DNA of 64,000 nucleotides from positions 163,680 to 227,679 of the forward strand of contig JBAZRI010000001.1 of assembly GCA_041662965.1 (NCBI GenBank). The letters run 5' to 3'. Below are positions 43,347 through 50,103 of the stretch, piece after piece. Below the pieces are notes generated by a model, which was given only the letters and a program-made list of their open reading frames with translations, had not been told where the DNA came from and did no database searches. A program made the translations under genes and the position numbers. Numbering within the stretch: the stretch's first letter is position 1; every line of letters begins with the position of its first letter. Source of the DNA: Patescibacteria group bacterium (GTDB lineage Bacteria > Patescibacteriota > Patescibacteriia > Patescibacteriales > GWC2-42-12).

Positions 43347-43982
43347 TTATTTCCATTCTTTAATAAATTGTTTGATAAATAATTTAGTAAATAAATATTT
43401 ATCTTTAGCAATTTTTTTGGCGACTTTAGTGTTTAAATGTTTATAAGCCGACAATTCAAAATTTAAAGTATGTAAAACGCTGAAATTTCCCCCGAAAATA
43501 ATATGGGGGCTGAATTTAATATTTTTATTCCACATCGTTTTGTTATATTTTCCAGCCCAGATAAAATTTCTGCCAACGCCGATTGCTCCAAGAGATTCTA
43601 TCCTATCGGCATCTTGGAAAATTTTTATTTCTAATTCTTTTGGCTTATGTTTACAATGATTCTTAACCCAGCAGTAATTATCATGTTCTTTAATAATTTT
43701 TAAAACTATAGGTATATTATTTTTCGGAAATTTTATTTTAGTTAAAATTTTAAAGGCTAATTTAACCGATTCATGGCTGTGCTCATTATGAGTTTTATTT
43801 ATATAGCCGATATCATGGAGCAGGGCAGCGGCATATAAAATATCAAGATTAGCCTTTTTATAACTTTTAGAGATTATTTTGCAGATTTCATAAATCCTTA
43901 AGCCATGGTCTGCTCGATGAGCTACGTCCAAGTTATCTAATTCAGTTTTTGCTATAGTTAATAATTTTTTTCTCCAATCCAT
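43347..43982 (-). CDS. HD-domain phosphohydrolase
   Basis: H...HD pattern (AHRADHGLRI ... AALLHDIGY ... DADRIESLG). Confidence 0.75.
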   Translation of the reverse strand: MDWRKKLLTIAKTELDNLDVAHRADHGLRIYEICKIISKSYKKANLDILYAAALLHDIGYINKTHNEHSHESVKLAFKILTKIKFPKNNIPIVLKIIKEHDNYCWVKNHCKHKPKELEIKIFQDADRIESLGAIGVGRNFIWAGKYNKTMWNKNIKFSPHIIFGGNFSVLHTLNFELSAYKHLNTKVAKKIAKDKYLFTKLFIKQFIKEWK

Positions 43983-44043: not shown

Positions 44044-45219
44044 TTAAAACAGCCCCGAACTGCCAAAGCAGCCGTCTTTTCTGTCGGTTTCATCCGCGAC
44101 GCGCCCTTCAACTATTTCCGGCAATTCAATCTTTTGAATTAATAATTGGGCGATTTTCTGTCCGGGCGCGATGTGGAAAATATCTTGGCCTAAATTTATG
44201 AGCTCTACGGTAACTTCGCCTCTGAAGCCGGCGTCAATCACTCCGGCTAAAGAGTGGATGCCGTTTTTCGCCAATCCGCCTTTATCCCAGACTAAACCAA
44301 CAAACCCTTTAGGCAGGGCGATTTTTATTCCGGTTTTTATTATGGCGTATTTTCCCGGAGTTAAAGAATGATAGTCGGCCGAATATAAATCCAGCCCGGC
44401 GTCGTATTCGTAAGCGCGGGTCGGCAATTTAGCCCAGGAAGATATTTTTTCAACTTTAAGTTTTAAAATGTTTTCTTCGGCGCCGGTCGGCGATATGCTA
44501 TTGTGTAATTCTTTAAAGTTGGCCGAATAGGGCGCGGGTTTAAAAAGCCTGATAATTTTTTCCCAGATTAAATTGCTGATATCTTCGCGGCTTAGCATTC
44601 GCCCGTCGGCAACGCATTCAATCAAGGTAAAATTCGGGAAATTTTGCGCTATTTGCGAATAAGTTTGTTCGGCTTTTTTCAAGTGGTTAAGGTCGTTTTG
44701 GTGGATGTCGTTGGTTTTGCCGTTCCAGTCTTGCTTTAGCCTGCTTTGGGCCAGTTGCTGGGAAATCTCCGCGTCCACATGGAGGATGATATTTAAATCC
44801 GGCTTAGGGATATCAAAAATTTCATATTCAAGCTGATAGAGCCAATCAAAATAATGTTTTCTTTCCAGATCGTTAGAAATTTTACCCCCTTGGTGCCCCA
44901 TATTGGCCGTAACGTAGCGGTTGGAAATGACTATTTTGCCTTCGGCCAACCAGGTTTTTATTTTAAAGCTGGCGTCATAGCGGTCGCAAGCGTAAAAAAT
45001 AGAAGCCCGGTACGGCCCGACTTCTTCCGGACTGCCGTATTTTCCGGAAAGATATTCCTCAACCATGCCGGCAGATTTAGTGTTATATTGGGGAAAATCG
45101 GCGATAGCCACGTTAAAACCGGCCCGCCAGAGTTTTTCAGCTAAAAGCTGGGTTTGCGTGGCTTTGCCCGAGCCGTCGGTGCCGTCTATAACGATAAATT
45201 TTCCGCGTTGTTTTTCCAT
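44044..45219 (-). CDS. tmk: Thymidylate kinase - dUTPase fusion protein
   Basis: The N-terminal half has the Tmk P-loop IDGTDGSGKAT and the DRY motif (ACDRYD). The C-terminal ~140 aa is a trimeric dUTPase (YDAGLDLY, GVIDAGFRGEV, DGCFGSSG). Confidence 0.85.
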   Translation of the reverse strand: MEKQRGKFIVIDGTDGSGKATQTQLLAEKLWRAGFNVAIADFPQYNTKSAGMVEEYLSGKYGSPEEVGPYRASIFYACDRYDASFKIKTWLAEGKIVISNRYVTANMGHQGGKISNDLERKHYFDWLYQLEYEIFDIPKPDLNIILHVDAEISQQLAQSRLKQDWNGKTNDIHQNDLNHLKKAEQTYSQIAQNFPNFTLIECVADGRMLSREDISNLIWEKIIRLFKPAPYSANFKELHNSISPTGAEENILKLKVEKISSWAKLPTRAYEYDAGLDLYSADYHSLTPGKYAIIKTGIKIALPKGFVGLVWDKGGLAKNGIHSLAGVIDAGFRGEVTVELINLGQDIFHIAPGQKIAQLLIQKIELPEIVEGRVADETDRKDGCFGSSGLF

Positions 45220-45283: not shown

Positions 45284-45838
45284 CTAGCTGTTTAAAATGA
45301 TTTGGTCAATCTGCTTGTATAAATCCTCCAGGCTGCCATTATTATTTATTTCCAGGTCGGCCTTAGCCATTACCATCGGAATTTCGGCGTCGGCTTCTTT
45401 ATTATGGTCTTCTAAAAATTGTTCAAAAGTTTTATCAGCGTCGTCGGGATTTTCTTTGCGTAAAACAATTCTTTGATATCTTATTTTCGGATCGGCCGCG
45501 ATGCGGACTAATTTAAAATTTCCCATTTCAGCTAAATATTTTATGTCCACCAGCCTTCTTACTCCGTCAACCGCGACAATTTTATTTTTATCATTGGCTA
45601 CGTCGCTGGCCATAACTTTAGCGATAATATCTTCGCCGAAATATTGCCTTAGAGCCGTAGAAATAAATTGCATATTTTCCCTGGCGTCCGGGATATAAAG
45701 CCGTTTCAGCACGTCTCTGAGCATGGTAGAAAACCGGTAGGGGCTGGCGCCATGTTTTTCTTTTAAATATTTAACTGTTGTTCCTTTGCCCGCGGCCAAT
45801 AGCCCGACGAAGCCGAGAATAATTTTTTTATTTTCCAT
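45284..45838 (-). CDS. P-loop nucleoside/deoxynucleoside monophosphate kinase-like protein
   Basis: Walker A GLLAAGKGT in a ~180-aa small-kinase architecture. Substrate unknown. Confidence 0.5.
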   Translation of the reverse strand: MENKKIILGFVGLLAAGKGTTVKYLKEKHGASPYRFSTMLRDVLKRLYIPDARENMQFISTALRQYFGEDIIAKVMASDVANDKNKIVAVDGVRRLVDIKYLAEMGNFKLVRIAADPKIRYQRIVLRKENPDDADKTFEQFLEDHNKEADAEIPMVMAKADLEINNNGSLEDLYKQIDQIILNS

Positions 45839-45840
45839 AA

Positions 45841-46350
45841 TTATTTATTTTTTAAAGCGTTTTTTATTAATTTGCCGCTGCCGCGGTTGCCTAGGAGATT
45901 ATAAAATTTTATCCGGTTAAGCTTTTTTATATCAATCCATTCGGCCATATCGGTATATTTTTTTTCATATTCATCAAAATTATCTTTTGATAATTTGCCG
46001 CCGGTTTTTTTAACTAAAAAATAAAATAATTGGCAATTCCAATATTTTTTTCTCATGGTTGAATGAAAAAGAGAGCTGCCGACGTAGATAATTTTACCCC
46101 GTTTAACTTTAAATCCGGTTTCTTCCCAAAATTCTCTTTTTAAAGTATCTTCAATGGTTTCATGAAGTTCGGCGCCACCACCGGGAAAGTCATAGCCGTC
46201 CCATTGTTTTGAAAGCAATATTTTATTTTTTTCTATTAAAATTCCGTAAATTGATGGGCGAAAAGTTAATTTTTTAGCATCTACTTTATATAGCTTGCCG
46301 TTTATGTCGCGGCAGACAACTATTTTTGTTTTATTTTTTGATTTTTTCAT
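45841..46350 (-). CDS. Nudix hydrolase
   Basis: Nudix box GGGAELHETIEDTLKREFWEETGF. Confidence 0.85.
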   Translation of the reverse strand: MKKSKNKTKIVVCRDINGKLYKVDAKKLTFRPSIYGILIEKNKILLSKQWDGYDFPGGGAELHETIEDTLKREFWEETGFKVKRGKIIYVGSSLFHSTMRKKYWNCQLFYFLVKKTGGKLSKDNFDEYEKKYTDMAEWIDIKKLNRIKFYNLLGNRGSGKLIKNALKNK

Positions 46351-46854
46351 TTAATATAATATTTTGTATTTTAGCATTATAGCGTTATCGTTTATTTTTT
46401 TTATTTCTTTTAGCTCTAAATTAATATTAAAATCTCCATTGAATAATCCCAGGCCGGCGCCGAAGATTTTCGGCTCAACCGTTAAAATTATTTCGCTGAT
46501 TAATTTTTTTTCTAGAAACAGGGTATTTAAAAAAGCGCCGCCGCCGAGCAAGGCCGAAGCATAGCCCATTTTTTCCAGTTCAGCTAAAACCGGCTCAATC
46601 TCGCCCGACACCCATTTTACTCCGGCCCGTTCCGGCGGATTTTTTTCTAAAGTAAAAACAACATTCAGCCGATCTTTAAGAGGCGAGGGGAAAGTGGCGA
46701 AGGTTTTTTCGCCCATCATAACCGCGCCGTGCTGTTTAGAAATTTCGGCGAACAGTTTTTTGTCTTCTTTGGACGTCCAATCGGGGAAGTGGCCGCTGGT
46801 TTTGGCGATTTTACCGTCGGCCGTTATGGCCATCATTAAGGTTACGGAAATCAT
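46351..46854 (-). CDS. Dihydrofolate reductase-family protein (RibD C-terminal-like)
   Basis: MAITADGKIA..., GEKTF and LLGGGAFLN are typical of the RibD_C/DHFR-like reductase fold. Confidence 0.6.
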   Translation of the reverse strand: MISVTLMMAITADGKIAKTSGHFPDWTSKEDKKLFAEISKQHGAVMMGEKTFATFPSPLKDRLNVVFTLEKNPPERAGVKWVSGEIEPVLAELEKMGYASALLGGGAFLNTLFLEKKLISEIILTVEPKIFGAGLGLFNGDFNINLELKEIKKINDNAIMLKYKILY

Positions 46855-47736
46855 TTATTTATTATAATTTTTTAAGAATAAATCCAATTGTTTAAGCAGG
46901 TCGTTTTCATCTTTGGCCTCGATTTGTTTTACGGCAGCCGGGTTACCACGCGCCATACGGCTGACTTTTTCTCCCTGATACCACCATAAGATAATATCAG
47001 AAGCTGTAATTCTGGCGATTTCTAATTCAGCGCCAACACCCAGGCTGGGTAAGCCGACATAAGCGATTATTAAATCCGCGCTGGCGACTTCATGATGATC
47101 TTTTTTCCAGACCGCCAGAGGCGAGACCCGGGGGTTTTTTATCGGATCAGTTCCACCAAGATGAGGCACATAAACATTAGAGCAAATTTTAGAGCAAATT
47201 GCGGCGATTTTTTGGTAAGTTTCCCTATGGGCCGAATTTGTTTCGTTGGTGAGCGCGCCGCTAATGTATATTTTTCCCACGGATGAGGAAAAATTAAATT
47301 TATTATAAGAATTTTTAACCAAATAAACATTTTTTATACGCGCTTTAATTATCGTGTCCCAGCAATTTTTACAGCACCACCAGTGACCGTATAAATATAA
47401 ATCTGCATCTTTACTATCTTGTCCGTTAGCTTTAGCGTTATTGGTTGAAGTTACTTCGCTGTGTCCAGTTTGTAAGCATACCTCTTTGCAATAATGATAG
47501 TCCTCTCCGGTTTTACTGCCATTTAAAACTCGCGGGCAAACTTCTATTTTTTTACCGGCATTACAGCCACGGCCGATAATTATTCCATTTTTTACTATAA
47601 CAGCGCCGGTAGGCTGTTTAGAACAGCCGGTAGTCTCGGCCATTTTTTTCGCTTCAATCATAAACTGATTATCTTCGGCGACGAATTGGATGACTTTACC
47701 TTCGGGGAGATAAGGATATTTTATTGGTTCGGTCAT
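46855..47736 (-). CDS. dCMP deaminase fused to a DNPH1/Rcl-like nucleoside 2-deoxyribosyltransferase-family domain
   Basis: The N-terminal half has the deaminase zinc motifs GHSE and WWCCKNC. The C-terminal half has IYISGAL and ADLIIAYVGLPSLGVGAELEIA, compared with human DNPH1 YFCGSI and ADVVVAEVTQPSLGVGYELGRA. Confidence 0.75.
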   Translation of the reverse strand: MTEPIKYPYLPEGKVIQFVAEDNQFMIEAKKMAETTGCSKQPTGAVIVKNGIIIGRGCNAGKKIEVCPRVLNGSKTGEDYHYCKEVCLQTGHSEVTSTNNAKANGQDSKDADLYLYGHWWCCKNCWDTIIKARIKNVYLVKNSYNKFNFSSSVGKIYISGALTNETNSAHRETYQKIAAICSKICSNVYVPHLGGTDPIKNPRVSPLAVWKKDHHEVASADLIIAYVGLPSLGVGAELEIARITASDIILWWYQGEKVSRMARGNPAAVKQIEAKDENDLLKQLDLFLKNYNK

Positions 47737-47740
47737 ATTT

Positions 47741-48403
47741 TTAAATTTTATATTTTTCTTTAAGCTGGTCTAACTGGCCTTGTTTGATTAAATCCATTTC
47801 TTCTTCGCTGTCGGAGCGGCTTTCTAAGCCGTAAGGTGTAGATTCAAAATATTTAGCGTCTTTTAAGCCGTGTTTTTTGGCGTCTTCATCGGAAATCGGA
47901 GATGATAGAGTCTGGAAAGTCAGATGAGAAATTCTTTCGCCCGGATATAATTTAATAATTTGCGTATCGGTATTGTTGACGATAGGGAAGGTAAGCGTGC
48001 CCTGGTATTTTACGTCAATCGTGCCATTAGCGATAAACAGGCCTCTCCTTAAAAGAGAGCTGCGGGCATTAAGCTGGGCCATGATTTGATCGTCTTTCAA
48101 AGTTATTTTTTCCAATGATGAAGCAATTATAAATTCTTTAGGCAACAGTTCAAAATATTGCCCGGGTTTTAATTTAACCAAGTCAAAATTATCTTGGGCC
48201 GATTCTTTAGCGTTAAAATAATCAAAGTTAATGGCAATCCGGCCGTTTTCGGAAAGTTTCCATTTTTTTGGTATATAAAAACTGTAGCCTAGGCGCAAGT
48301 CAACGGCATGAGGCTGGATTTGGTATTGGTCAAGCCGGGGGTCAAAAATGATTTTATTATTTTTTAAATAATCCAAAATTTCCTGTTTGCTAAGTAGCGA
48401 CAT
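47741..48403 (-). CDS. dcd: dCTP deaminase/dUTPase-superfamily protein lacking the deaminase Glu
   Basis: AVDLRLG, ARSSLLRRG and GTIDVKYQG follow the Dcd-family layout. The strand equivalent to E. coli IVLEF reads LTFPI. Confidence 0.75.
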   Translation of the reverse strand: MSLLSKQEILDYLKNNKIIFDPRLDQYQIQPHAVDLRLGYSFYIPKKWKLSENGRIAINFDYFNAKESAQDNFDLVKLKPGQYFELLPKEFIIASSLEKITLKDDQIMAQLNARSSLLRRGLFIANGTIDVKYQGTLTFPIVNNTDTQIIKLYPGERISHLTFQTLSSPISDEDAKKHGLKDAKYFESTPYGLESRSDSEEEMDLIKQGQLDQLKEKYKI

Positions 48404-48419: not shown

Positions 48420-49250
48420 TTAAAGCACGATTTTTAAACCCTGAATCGGCGGCAACGGTTGGTATTGAGCGGTTAATTTACCGACAATTTCTTCAACTAA
48501 AGAATCATCGGCTTTTTCCGCCCGCTCAAACCAATTTTCTTGAGGCTCAAGCGAAATTTTCGGATGCTGGTTATCCCGTTCCAATATTTCCCAGGCGGCT
48601 TTATAATGAATATCATATATGTGGGCGTTGCTGATGGAGTGGGTTAGCCGGCCCGGCTTAACGCCAAGTTTAGCCGCCAGAATGTATTGCAGTAAAGCAA
48701 AACCGGCTACGTCATGCGGACAACCTAATATCATGTCGTTGGAGCGGACGATGGAATGAATATGCAATCGGTTGCCTATAATATTGACGGTAAACGTGTA
48801 AGGACAGGGGACATTTTTCTTTTTGTTGCCCGAGCCTAGGCCGTCGTCGGACGGATCCCAAGTGATAATTACGGCATGGCGGGAACCAGGCTGCTCTTGC
48901 AAATGCTTAATTAAGGAATCAATTTGGTCGCGGCCGAAATGTTTACGCCATCTATAGCCGTAAGCCGCGGCCACCGTGCCGTCTTCTTCGGTAAAATCAT
49001 CCCAAATTTTAGTATATTTTTTTAAAAATTCATCCGGACGATTGGAACCTGTTAAAAACCAAATTTGTTCGGCTACAAAAATTTTTATGGGTATTTTTCT
49101 TAAGGTTAAGAGGGGAAAACCATCATCTAAATGCAAAGTAATGCCCGGGACGATTTTTGTTTTATGGCCGGTTCTTTCGTTATATTCTTCATAGCCGTTA
49201 TTCATTATTTCCCAAATAGCTTCCTTATATTTTTGGTCAAATTGAGTCAT
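48420..49250 (-). CDS. thyA: Thymidylate synthase (ThyA) family enzyme with Asp at the Asn177-equivalent position
   Basis: NERTGHKT, DGFPLLTLRK, EQIWFL, YGYRWR, catalytic Cys in VPCPY, VRSNDMILGCPHDVAGFALL, and SNAHIY. Confidence 0.8.
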   Translation of the reverse strand: MTQFDQKYKEAIWEIMNNGYEEYNERTGHKTKIVPGITLHLDDGFPLLTLRKIPIKIFVAEQIWFLTGSNRPDEFLKKYTKIWDDFTEEDGTVAAAYGYRWRKHFGRDQIDSLIKHLQEQPGSRHAVIITWDPSDDGLGSGNKKKNVPCPYTFTVNIIGNRLHIHSIVRSNDMILGCPHDVAGFALLQYILAAKLGVKPGRLTHSISNAHIYDIHYKAAWEILERDNQHPKISLEPQENWFERAEKADDSLVEEIVGKLTAQYQPLPPIQGLKIVL

Positions 49251-49431: not shown

Positions 49432-50103
49432 CTAGCGGACAGCCGCGAGCCAAACTGCGCTGCCACCTTTATATTCGGGATCTGCTGGGCGGTAAGCTTT
49501 AATTTTTTTACCATCATGATATTCCCCGAACGAAATAAAACACAAACGACCATTGGCATCTTTCCAGAGAACATCAATGATGCGCGCTTTCTGAAAAATA
49601 GAAGGATTTTTTTTAAGTATGTCGACCACTTCGTAAGGATTGGCCCACCGTTTATAGCCACGGCTTTTAAGCTCAACTTCAGCTACGTTATAACGCAGGC
49701 TGACACCCTTATGGAAAAATTCAACAGGAATCTTGATTTTTTTATTTTTCGGCATAGTCGAAATCACATCATCATCGAATTCAATCTCCCAACCATTTTT
49801 CCTGAAAAAAGAGAACATTTTCTGCGCCGTTTGATTATAATTTGGTTTAGATAACCTTCTAAATACATTTTTAGCATCTTCTCGTAAGTCTTCAGCAACA
49901 TCTCTTAGCGGGAAATAAAGTAAGCTGTTTAGTAAGTACTTAGCACGCACCTCGTTATTGAGAATTAGCCGCGCGTCTTTATTGCTTAATCCTAAACATT
50001 TAGGGTTATTACGCAAAATACCGAAAATCATGTTTATTAATTTTGAAACTAGAGCCTGCTTGTCTGAAATTTTTAAATTTTTTCTTGCTCTTACTTCTGT
50101 CAT
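49432..50103 (-). CDS. Hypothetical 223-aa protein (standalone transcription unit)
   Basis: SD caggagga lies upstream, with its own promoter and terminator. No recognisable domain. Confidence 0.55.
   Translation of the reverse strand: MTEVRARKNLKISDKQALVSKLINMIFGILRNNPKCLGLSNKDARLILNNEVRAKYLLNSLLYFPLRDVAEDLREDAKNVFRRLSKPNYNQTAQKMFSFFRKNGWEIEFDDDVISTMPKNKKIKIPVEFFHKGVSLRYNVAEVELKSRGYKRWANPYEVVDILKKNPSIFQKARIIDVLWKDANGRLCFISFGEYHDGKKIKAYRPADPEYKGGSAVWLAAVR

Follow-up and report, generated by a model that had tools for sequence, protein, structure and literature searches.

A Dcd-fold protein of Patescibacteria without the catalytic glutamate: a probable pyrophosphatase, possibly acting on dCTP, in a putative thymidylate gene cluster

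Is a protein that is recognized as a dCTP deaminase (Dcd) still a deaminase when the residue needed for deamination is gone, and if not, which reaction would it catalyze? The question is raised by an open reading frame (ORF), here designated DcdP, that lies in a 64,000-nucleotide stretch of DNA from a Patescibacteria group bacterium (assembly GCA_041662965.1, contig JBAZRI010000001.1, positions 163,680 to 227,679), hereafter the window. The ORF given in the original prediction was borne out (Table 1); it encodes 220 amino acids on the minus strand, which had not been stated. That prediction, made from the DNA letters, held that the protein lacks the catalytic glutamate and is likely a pyrophosphatase rather than a deaminase. 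Our analysis came to the same view, and on its sequence DcdP is very probably a pyrophosphatase. The chances are even that deoxycytidine triphosphate (dCTP) is its physiological substrate, and deoxyuridine triphosphate (dUTP) is possibly a second one.

DcdP matched the Pfam family DCD (PF22769) at an E value of 7.5e-27 and scored 103.5 bits on the dCTP deaminase model TIGR02274, above the curated cutoff of 92.8. Scores were below the cutoffs for the classical trimeric dUTPase model TIGR00576 (26 bits, cutoff 102.55) and for the archaeal dUTPase model NF002598 (29.3 bits, cutoff 130). An AlphaFold2 model generated from a 42-sequence alignment had a pLDDT of 91.5. When this model was searched with Foldseek, the top matches were E. 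coli Dcd and the bifunctional Dcd-Dut enzymes, with target-normalised TM scores of 0.77-0.89, and the archaeal Dcd-fold dUTPases ranked after them. In the PDB the DcdP family profile matched best (1e-25) to 4xjc, the B. halodurans Dcd-Dut, which is bifunctional and binds dCTP. This suggests, as far as sequence similarity goes, that the ancestor of DcdP was a dCTP-using enzyme competent for hydrolysis.

The catalytic residue of E. coli Dcd is Glu138, which corresponds to Glu129 in the M. tuberculosis enzyme and Glu145 in the M. jannaschii enzyme. DcdP residues 129-143 (IDVKYQGTLTFPIVN) were aligned by phmmer against the PDB, without gaps, to IDPGWSGCIVLEFYN of E. coli and IDPGFSGHITLELSN of M. 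tuberculosis, as had been proposed for the E. coli strand. The spacing D130-x9-P140-x2-N143 in DcdP equals D128-x9-E138-x2-N141 in E. coli Dcd. No gap falls between the invariant Asp and Asn, which places Pro140 of DcdP in the Glu138 column, and MAFFT alignments with reference sequences agreed. A comparison with Dcd and the Dcd-fold dUTPases had been suggested as a check, and the sequence alignments with these enzymes gave no catalytic Glu. The strand was said to have no Glu or Asp; the only acidic residue on it is Asp130, which belongs to motif III itself.

Other elements of the active site are retained in DcdP, as had also been noted. ARSSLLRRG (residues 113-121) aligned to GRSSLARLG and keeps the Arg-Ser-Ser as well as the equivalents of Ser111 and Arg115. 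The motif G-x-I-D-x-x-Y-x-G is present, and its Tyr133 is dUTPase-like, the residue at this position in Dcd being Phe or Trp. Motif IV reads PGERISHL in DcdP, PGERIAQ in E. coli Dut, GERFVQ in the T. pacificus enzyme and GERFLH in the SIRV dUTPase. The monofunctional, non-hydrolysing E. coli Dcd has PGMLIGAL at this site, without Arg and Gln, and the bifunctional enzymes still have a basic residue together with Gln. The corresponding hydrolase residues in DcdP are Arg157 and His160, the latter being Gln in most relatives. The Gly-rich motif V, RGxxGFGSTG, is not found in DcdP, which ends in HGLKDAKY and a helical tail. This C-terminal extension of about 35 amino acids does not occur in any characterised Dcd or dUTPase protein; within it Glu202 never varies in the clade, and Gly209 and Lys215 hardly do. 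Possible roles of the extension are those of a lid, in oligomerisation or in partner binding.

Because Glu is replaced by Pro140, DcdP would not be expected to deaminate cytosine. The loss of Glu combined with a hydrolase signature led us to favor a pyrophosphatase, with the solved Glu-less dUTPases of the Dcd fold (8y1w, 9ln0 and 2zdc) as precedent. Cleavage of the alpha-beta phosphoanhydride would involve the motif-II Arg-Ser-Ser, Asp130, Arg157 together with His160, and the Dcd-type C-terminal lid.

Relatives of DcdP are encoded in at least 314 GTDB species genomes. For comparison of gene neighborhoods, 80 loci from different GTDB species were used, or 81 with the window. The hosts of these 80 loci and of 120 close homologs were Patescibacteria throughout. 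The Glu column held Pro in 78 of the 81 loci and Ser in the other three; Glu or Asp was found in none. Canonical relatives carried Glu in 98 of 131 cases in one set and in all 112 scorable sequences of another. A search that exhaustively covered 1.84 billion proteins supplied 150 representatives for comparison. The best-scoring group among them shared a joint signature, after which scores fell steeply to the Glu-bearing canonical Dcd proteins. In motif II the clade has PRSSxxRRG where canonical Dcd has GRSSxGRLG; the following loop is two residues shorter and without H-x-TAG; motif III is (I/V)D-x-x-Y-x-G-x-L-x-(I/F)-P versus IDPGFxGxITLE; and motif IV is PGERxCQ versus PGxxIGQ. In a neighbour-joining tree the Pro-state proteins formed one clade (22 with Pro and one with Ser) that stood apart from the archaeal dUTPases. 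This separate branch and the low score on the archaeal model indicate that Glu was lost independently of the archaeal dUTPases.

When 50,697 phage records were searched by tblastn for close relatives of DcdP, all matches came from archaeal viruses and had less than 35% identity; a scan of IMG/VR gave canonical Dcd and another Glu-less viral family but nothing from the Pro clade. This other Dcd-like family (TRSSLNRNG ... YDSGYEGVMAGVLHV ... GTRVGQL) is common among the IMG/VR loci L112-L167, where its Glu column is occupied by Val or Ala; its members are presumably viral Dcd-fold dUTPases and are unrelated to the Pro clade of Patescibacteria. Several module-bearing records (L007, L009, L021, L030, L036 and others), which come from binchicken co-assemblies, are titled 'uncultured Gammaproteobacteria bacterium' or 'Candidatus Saccharibacteria'; as taxonomic labels these titles are probably unreliable.

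The genes around dcdP bear on its substrate. On the minus strand of the window a tight operon runs in the order of a ThyA homolog, DcdP, a deoxycytidine monophosphate (dCMP) deaminase, a dihydrofolate reductase (DHFR)-like protein, a Nudix hydrolase, a P-loop kinase and a dTMP kinase (Tmk)-dUTPase fusion. The ThyA stop codon lies 16 nucleotides upstream of the DcdP start, and the deaminase start lies 4 nucleotides past the DcdP stop codon. Among the 80 loci, the order ThyA-DHFR-DcdP-deaminase was found in 33, a deaminase directly downstream of DcdP in 41 and a DHFR directly upstream in 43; the four-gene order is kept in distant lineages as well.

The ThyA neighbor of DcdP has Asp at the position of E. 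coli Asn177 in 61 of 67 loci. In the window this is Asp180 (codon 48711-48713, context GCPHDVAG), and it is accompanied by the changes PCH to PCP, SRR to SRH and GDTH to SNAH; across loci the linked changes are PCH to PCP, SRR to SRH/Q and GDTH to S(N/H)AH. The six loci with a canonical Asn-type ThyA are mainly from Dojkabacteria and WS6. Replacement of Asn177 by Asp is an established switch of ThyA specificity from deoxyuridine monophosphate (dUMP) to dCMP. Across viromes, Asp177 goes along with modified cytosine, and five of seven Asp177-type enzymes yielded 5-methyl-dCMP on expression. The dCMP-family deaminases beside phage Asp177 enzymes prefer 5-methyl-deoxycytidine (5-methyl-dC) nucleotides and thus give thymidine nucleotides via 5-methyl-dC. 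Phage PaMx74 replaces cytosine with 5-methylcytosine, according to a preprint. The window ThyA matched the PaMx74 thymidylate synthase at 161 bits (35% identity), compared with 108 bits for E. coli ThyA and 124 bits for a canonical ThyA of Patescibacteria. From these phage relatives, the window ThyA is predicted to be a dCMP C5-methyltransferase. The PaMx74 gene neighbors are a PRA-PH pyrophosphohydrolase, the Asp-type thymidylate synthase, a dCMP deaminase and a DHFR. These four functions recur in the Patescibacteria cluster, where DcdP takes the slot of PRA-PH, a protein unrelated to it. The suggestion in the original prediction that DcdP may, for example, convert dCTP to dCMP is strengthened, by analogy, by the adjacent Asp-type ThyA and the parallel with PaMx74.

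A classical trimeric dUTPase fused to Tmk was reported in the same operon, and this fusion was recovered (Thymidylate_kin and dUTPase domains; 115 bits on TIGR00576). Canonical dUTPases (RSS...RGGFGSTG) occur in the DcdP cluster of at least 10 other loci, which fits the argument that a second enzyme of this superfamily would be redundant as a dUTPase. Counting the Tmk-linked variants in further clusters, the window included, classical dUTPases, canonical or fused, share a cluster with DcdP in at least 14 loci besides the window. Because Dut is present in the cluster, in genomes of about 1 Mb, a pure dUTPase role for DcdP would be redundant. In mycobacteria, Dut coexists with a dCTP-using enzyme of the Dcd family that has a separate role.

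The Tmk-fused dUTPase domain (approximately residues 250-391) has features of its own. Motif II reads WDKGG in place of PRSG, which is common to L006, L008, L009 and L029. Only in the window does motif III (IDAGFRGEVTVELIN) have Phe for Tyr and Glu in the Dcd catalytic column; L006, the closest relative, has Tyr and Asn at those positions. The Glu is probably incidental.

The explanation that we favor, at about even chances, is that DcdP is a Glu-less enzyme of the Dcd fold that most likely converts dCTP and water to dCMP and pyrophosphate (PPi), as the first step of a thymidylate module; the substrate in this assignment is inferred from gene context only. In the proposed pathway, DcdP would supply dCMP from dCTP, and the Asp-type ThyA would methylate dCMP with methylene-tetrahydrofolate, giving 5-methyl-dCMP and dihydrofolate. 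The DHFR would recycle the dihydrofolate, and its presence in the cluster points to reductive methylation rather than hydroxymethylation. The adjacent deaminase would then convert 5-methyl-dCMP to dTMP, which Tmk would phosphorylate to dTDP. In the six loci with an Asn-type ThyA, DcdP would instead feed the classical route from dCMP via dUMP to dTMP. A broader and more tentative reading is that many Patescibacteria make thymidylate without dUMP, by way of a DcdP that turns dCTP into dCMP, an Asp177-type ThyA and a deaminase acting on 5-methyl-dCMP. In this tentative reading DcdP is possibly still under feedback control by deoxythymidine triphosphate, as Dcd enzymes are. In the extreme version of this tentative reading, part of the 5-methyl-dC pool would enter DNA, and the genomes would contain 5-methylcytosine incorporated at replication.

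Several points weigh against dCTP as the substrate, and some of them speak for the main alternative, which we regard as less likely: that DcdP is a plain Dcd-fold dUTPase releasing dUMP and PPi. It would then do in bacteria what the Dcd-like dUTPases do in archaea, keeping uracil out of DNA and supplying dUMP where ThyA is canonical. The characterised Glu-less enzymes of the Dcd fold (8y1w, 9ln0 and 2zdc) are dUTPases without exception, and no dCTPase is among them. Tyr133 and PGER of DcdP are dUTPase-like as well; the motif-III Tyr is found in S. tokodaii and E. coli Dut, and GERxxQ/H and PRSS are common to DcdP and dUTPases. In most loci, about 67 of 80, a classical Dut is absent within 10 kb, and DcdP could be the sole dUTPase in many genomes. 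The Dojkabacteria loci place DcdP beside a canonical Asn-type ThyA, and the DcdP motifs are unchanged between Asp-type and Asn-type loci. In addition, the operon Nudix hydrolase could be the source of dCTPase activity instead, dCMP could come from salvage in these scavenging bacteria, and the activities predicted for ThyA and the deaminase are drawn from phage relatives only. A plain dUTPase is nevertheless at odds with the classical dUTPases encoded in the same clusters and with a neighboring ThyA whose predicted substrate is dCMP in 61 of 67 loci, so that dUMP would not feed the pathway. It is also at odds with the separate place that the clade takes in the tree, away from archaeal dUTPases, and with a score on NF002598 far below the cutoff.

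Another possibility, that DcdP deaminates by means of a different acid (Glu202 of the tail placed over the active site, or Glu156) or is a non-catalytic, nucleotide-binding regulatory subunit, is very unlikely. It would account for the TIGR02274 score above cutoff, the retained Ser111 and Arg115 equivalents and the conserved tail with its invariant Glu202, which is otherwise unexplained. The complementation of an E. coli dcd mutant by eukaryotic Dcd2 (Dictyostelium), a protein nested among sequences of the candidate phyla radiation (CPR), was also counted in its favor. However, no member of the clade has anything but Pro or Ser in the Glu column, Glu156 occurs in classical dUTPases too, and the strongly conserved catalytic Asp, Arg and Ser are unlike those of a dead enzyme. 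Homolog searches found no eukaryotic member of the Pro clade, and none was viral. Two further searches that addressed Dcd2 gave only Glu-bearing canonical proteins, including those of Chloroflexi, the kind of relatives reported for Dcd2, which probably lies outside the Pro clade. It is highly improbable, too, that DcdP sanitises modified dCTP, for example by converting 5-methyl-dCTP to 5-methyl-dCMP in the manner of human DCTPP1 or E. coli NudG, such that 5-methyl-dC nucleotides made by the Asp-type ThyA are barred from DNA and returned to the deaminase. A cell that makes 5-methyl-dCMP must exclude 5-methyl-dCTP from its replication pool, DcdP is tightly linked to the predicted dCMP methylase and the deaminase, and related phage deaminases act on 5-methyl-dCTP; yet DcdP adjoins a canonical Asn-type ThyA in six loci, where 5-methyl-dCMP is not expected, and its sequence has no sign of recognition of a C5 substituent.

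Automated pipelines would label DcdP a dCTP deaminase in the species-level genomes that encode it, and homologs already carry this name. The mislabelling follows from the score above cutoff and the named homologs, although the deamination residue is missing, and metabolic reconstructions of Patescibacteria would therefore hold a wrong step. Should DcdP prove to be a dCTP pyrophosphatase, we have found no earlier dCTPase of the Dcd fold, and it would stand in for the all-alpha phage dCTPases without being homologous to them. With the deaminase and the Asp-type ThyA beside it, such an enzyme would argue for a thymidylate pathway that bypasses dUMP in cells, a route so far documented only for phages with modified cytosine. 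Of the two genes, the Asp-type ThyA rather than DcdP may turn out to be the more important one. No description of the Pro clade or of a cellular Asp-type ThyA module was found in the literature searched, which is absence of evidence only. The genes of the module are small and their products look soluble, so that the idea is directly testable.

Table 1. Position of DcdP, its motifs and the neighboring genes in the window.
Feature	Position	Strand	Remarks
Dcd-like ORF (DcdP)	47741..48403	-	220 aa, Dcd-fold enzyme without Glu
Motif II ARSSLLRRG	48041..48067	-	residues 113-121; triphosphate-binding Arg-Ser-Ser and Arg115 equivalent
Motif III hairpin GTIDVKYQGTLTFPIVN	47975..48025	-	residues 127-143; Asp130, Tyr133, Pro140
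Pro140 codon	47984..47986	-	column of catalytic Glu138 of E. coli Dcd
Motif IV PGERISHL	47921..47944	-	residues 154-161; dUTPase-type
HGLKDAKY	47849..47872	-	residues 178-185; counterpart of Dcd C-terminal lid (E. coli DAKY)
Clade-specific C-terminal extension, about 35 aa	47744..47848	-	two helices predicted
ThyA homolog	48420..49250	-	Asp180 at E. coli Asn177 position; predicted dCMP C5-methyltransferase
dCMP deaminase domain (HSE...CCKNC) and DNPH1/nucleoside 2-deoxyribosyltransferase-like C-terminal domain (weak)	46855..47736	-	
Dihydrofolate reductase-like protein	46351..46854	-	RibD_C / DHFR_1
Nudix hydrolase	45841..46350	-	
P-loop nucleotide kinase	45284..45838	-	AAA_17/18, PRK08356-like, weak DNMK match
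dTMP kinase and classical trimeric dUTPase fusion	44044..45219	-	Thymidylate_kin and dUTPase

Further features of the operon were recorded. The C-terminal domain of the dCMP deaminase, about 140 amino acids long, carries the motif PSLGVGAELEIA at 47014-47049, to which PSLGVGxEL of DNPH1-like proteins was aligned. Its sole matches are weak (E values of 0.007-0.1) and are to nucleoside 2-deoxyribosyltransferase, DNPH1/Rcl and CMP N-glycosidase; by tblastn, this domain was found in about 15 of the 80 loci. Human cells clear modified dCMP by a route that consists of DCTD and DNPH1, which the fusion recalls. The P-loop kinase matched PRK08356 at 77 bits and the T4-type DNMK family weakly (E value of 1.7e-4). 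It stands beside the deaminase in about 23 of the 80 loci and could phosphorylate a modified deoxynucleoside monophosphate. Directly downstream of the Tmk-dUTPase gene, an HD-domain phosphohydrolase (43347-43982, minus strand; PRK10119-like at 68 bits, under the cutoff of that model) may also belong to the operon and act in nucleotide metabolism. An ORF of 223 amino acids (49432-50103, minus strand) lies immediately upstream of the ThyA homolog and had no Pfam or NCBIfam matches. Neither a second Dcd or ThyA paralog nor a tRNA or Rfam match was found in the window. A prophage origin of the window was rejected, its genes being bacterial housekeeping genes (DnaK, DnaJ, GatB, MiaA and MiaB-like).

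Compared with known systems, DcdP falls outside the definitions of Dcd, bifunctional Dcd-Dut, the archaeal dUTPases of NF002598, classical dUTPases and all-alpha dCTPases, as judged by its sequence. With the archaeal Dcd-like dUTPases (P45 9ln0, T. pacificus 8y1w and S. tokodaii 2zdc) it shares the Dcd-type fold without a catalytic Glu, the motif RS(S/T)xxR, a short loop before motif III and the lack of a Gly-rich motif V. The Glu column of these enzymes holds Met in T. pacificus and P45 (GNLTLM) and Ala in S. tokodaii (GKVNVA), and motif IV is GERFVQ in the former two, similar to GERxxH of DcdP, and GMATHH in the latter. In contrast to the archaeal enzymes, the DcdP clade has Pro rather than a hydrophobic residue in the Glu column, an RR doublet, the 35-residue C-terminal extension, bacterial hosts and a location inside a cluster of Asp-type ThyA, DHFR and deaminase genes. 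E. coli Dcd (EC 3.5.4.13) shares with DcdP the fold, the motif RSSxxR and the DAKY lid. It differs in having Glu138 and in lacking the Arg and Gln of motif IV, where DcdP has Arg157 and His160.

The closest matches of DcdP in sequence and structure are the bifunctional Dcd-Dut enzymes (M. jannaschii, M. tuberculosis and B. halodurans 4xjc). They have in common with DcdP the residues for hydrolysis, namely the motif-III Asp and the basic residue of motif IV, which is joined by Gln in these enzymes and by His160 in the window. The bifunctional enzymes use dCTP, keep Glu and yield dUMP; DcdP, in which Glu is absent, cannot deaminate by their mechanism and would therefore release dCMP. Homology of DcdP to the dCTPase/dUTPase gp56 of phage T4 was rejected, with a BLASTP E value of 4.6 and gp56 being an all-alpha protein that matches dUTPase_2. 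The job proposed for DcdP is nonetheless that of gp56 and of the PRA-PH (MazG-type) enzymes of 5-methylcytosine phages, the latter represented by PaMx74: conversion of dCTP to dCMP near a ThyA homolog specific for cytosine, with a dCMP deaminase and a DHFR alongside. The likeness of DcdP to these phage enzymes is one of analogy, not homology.

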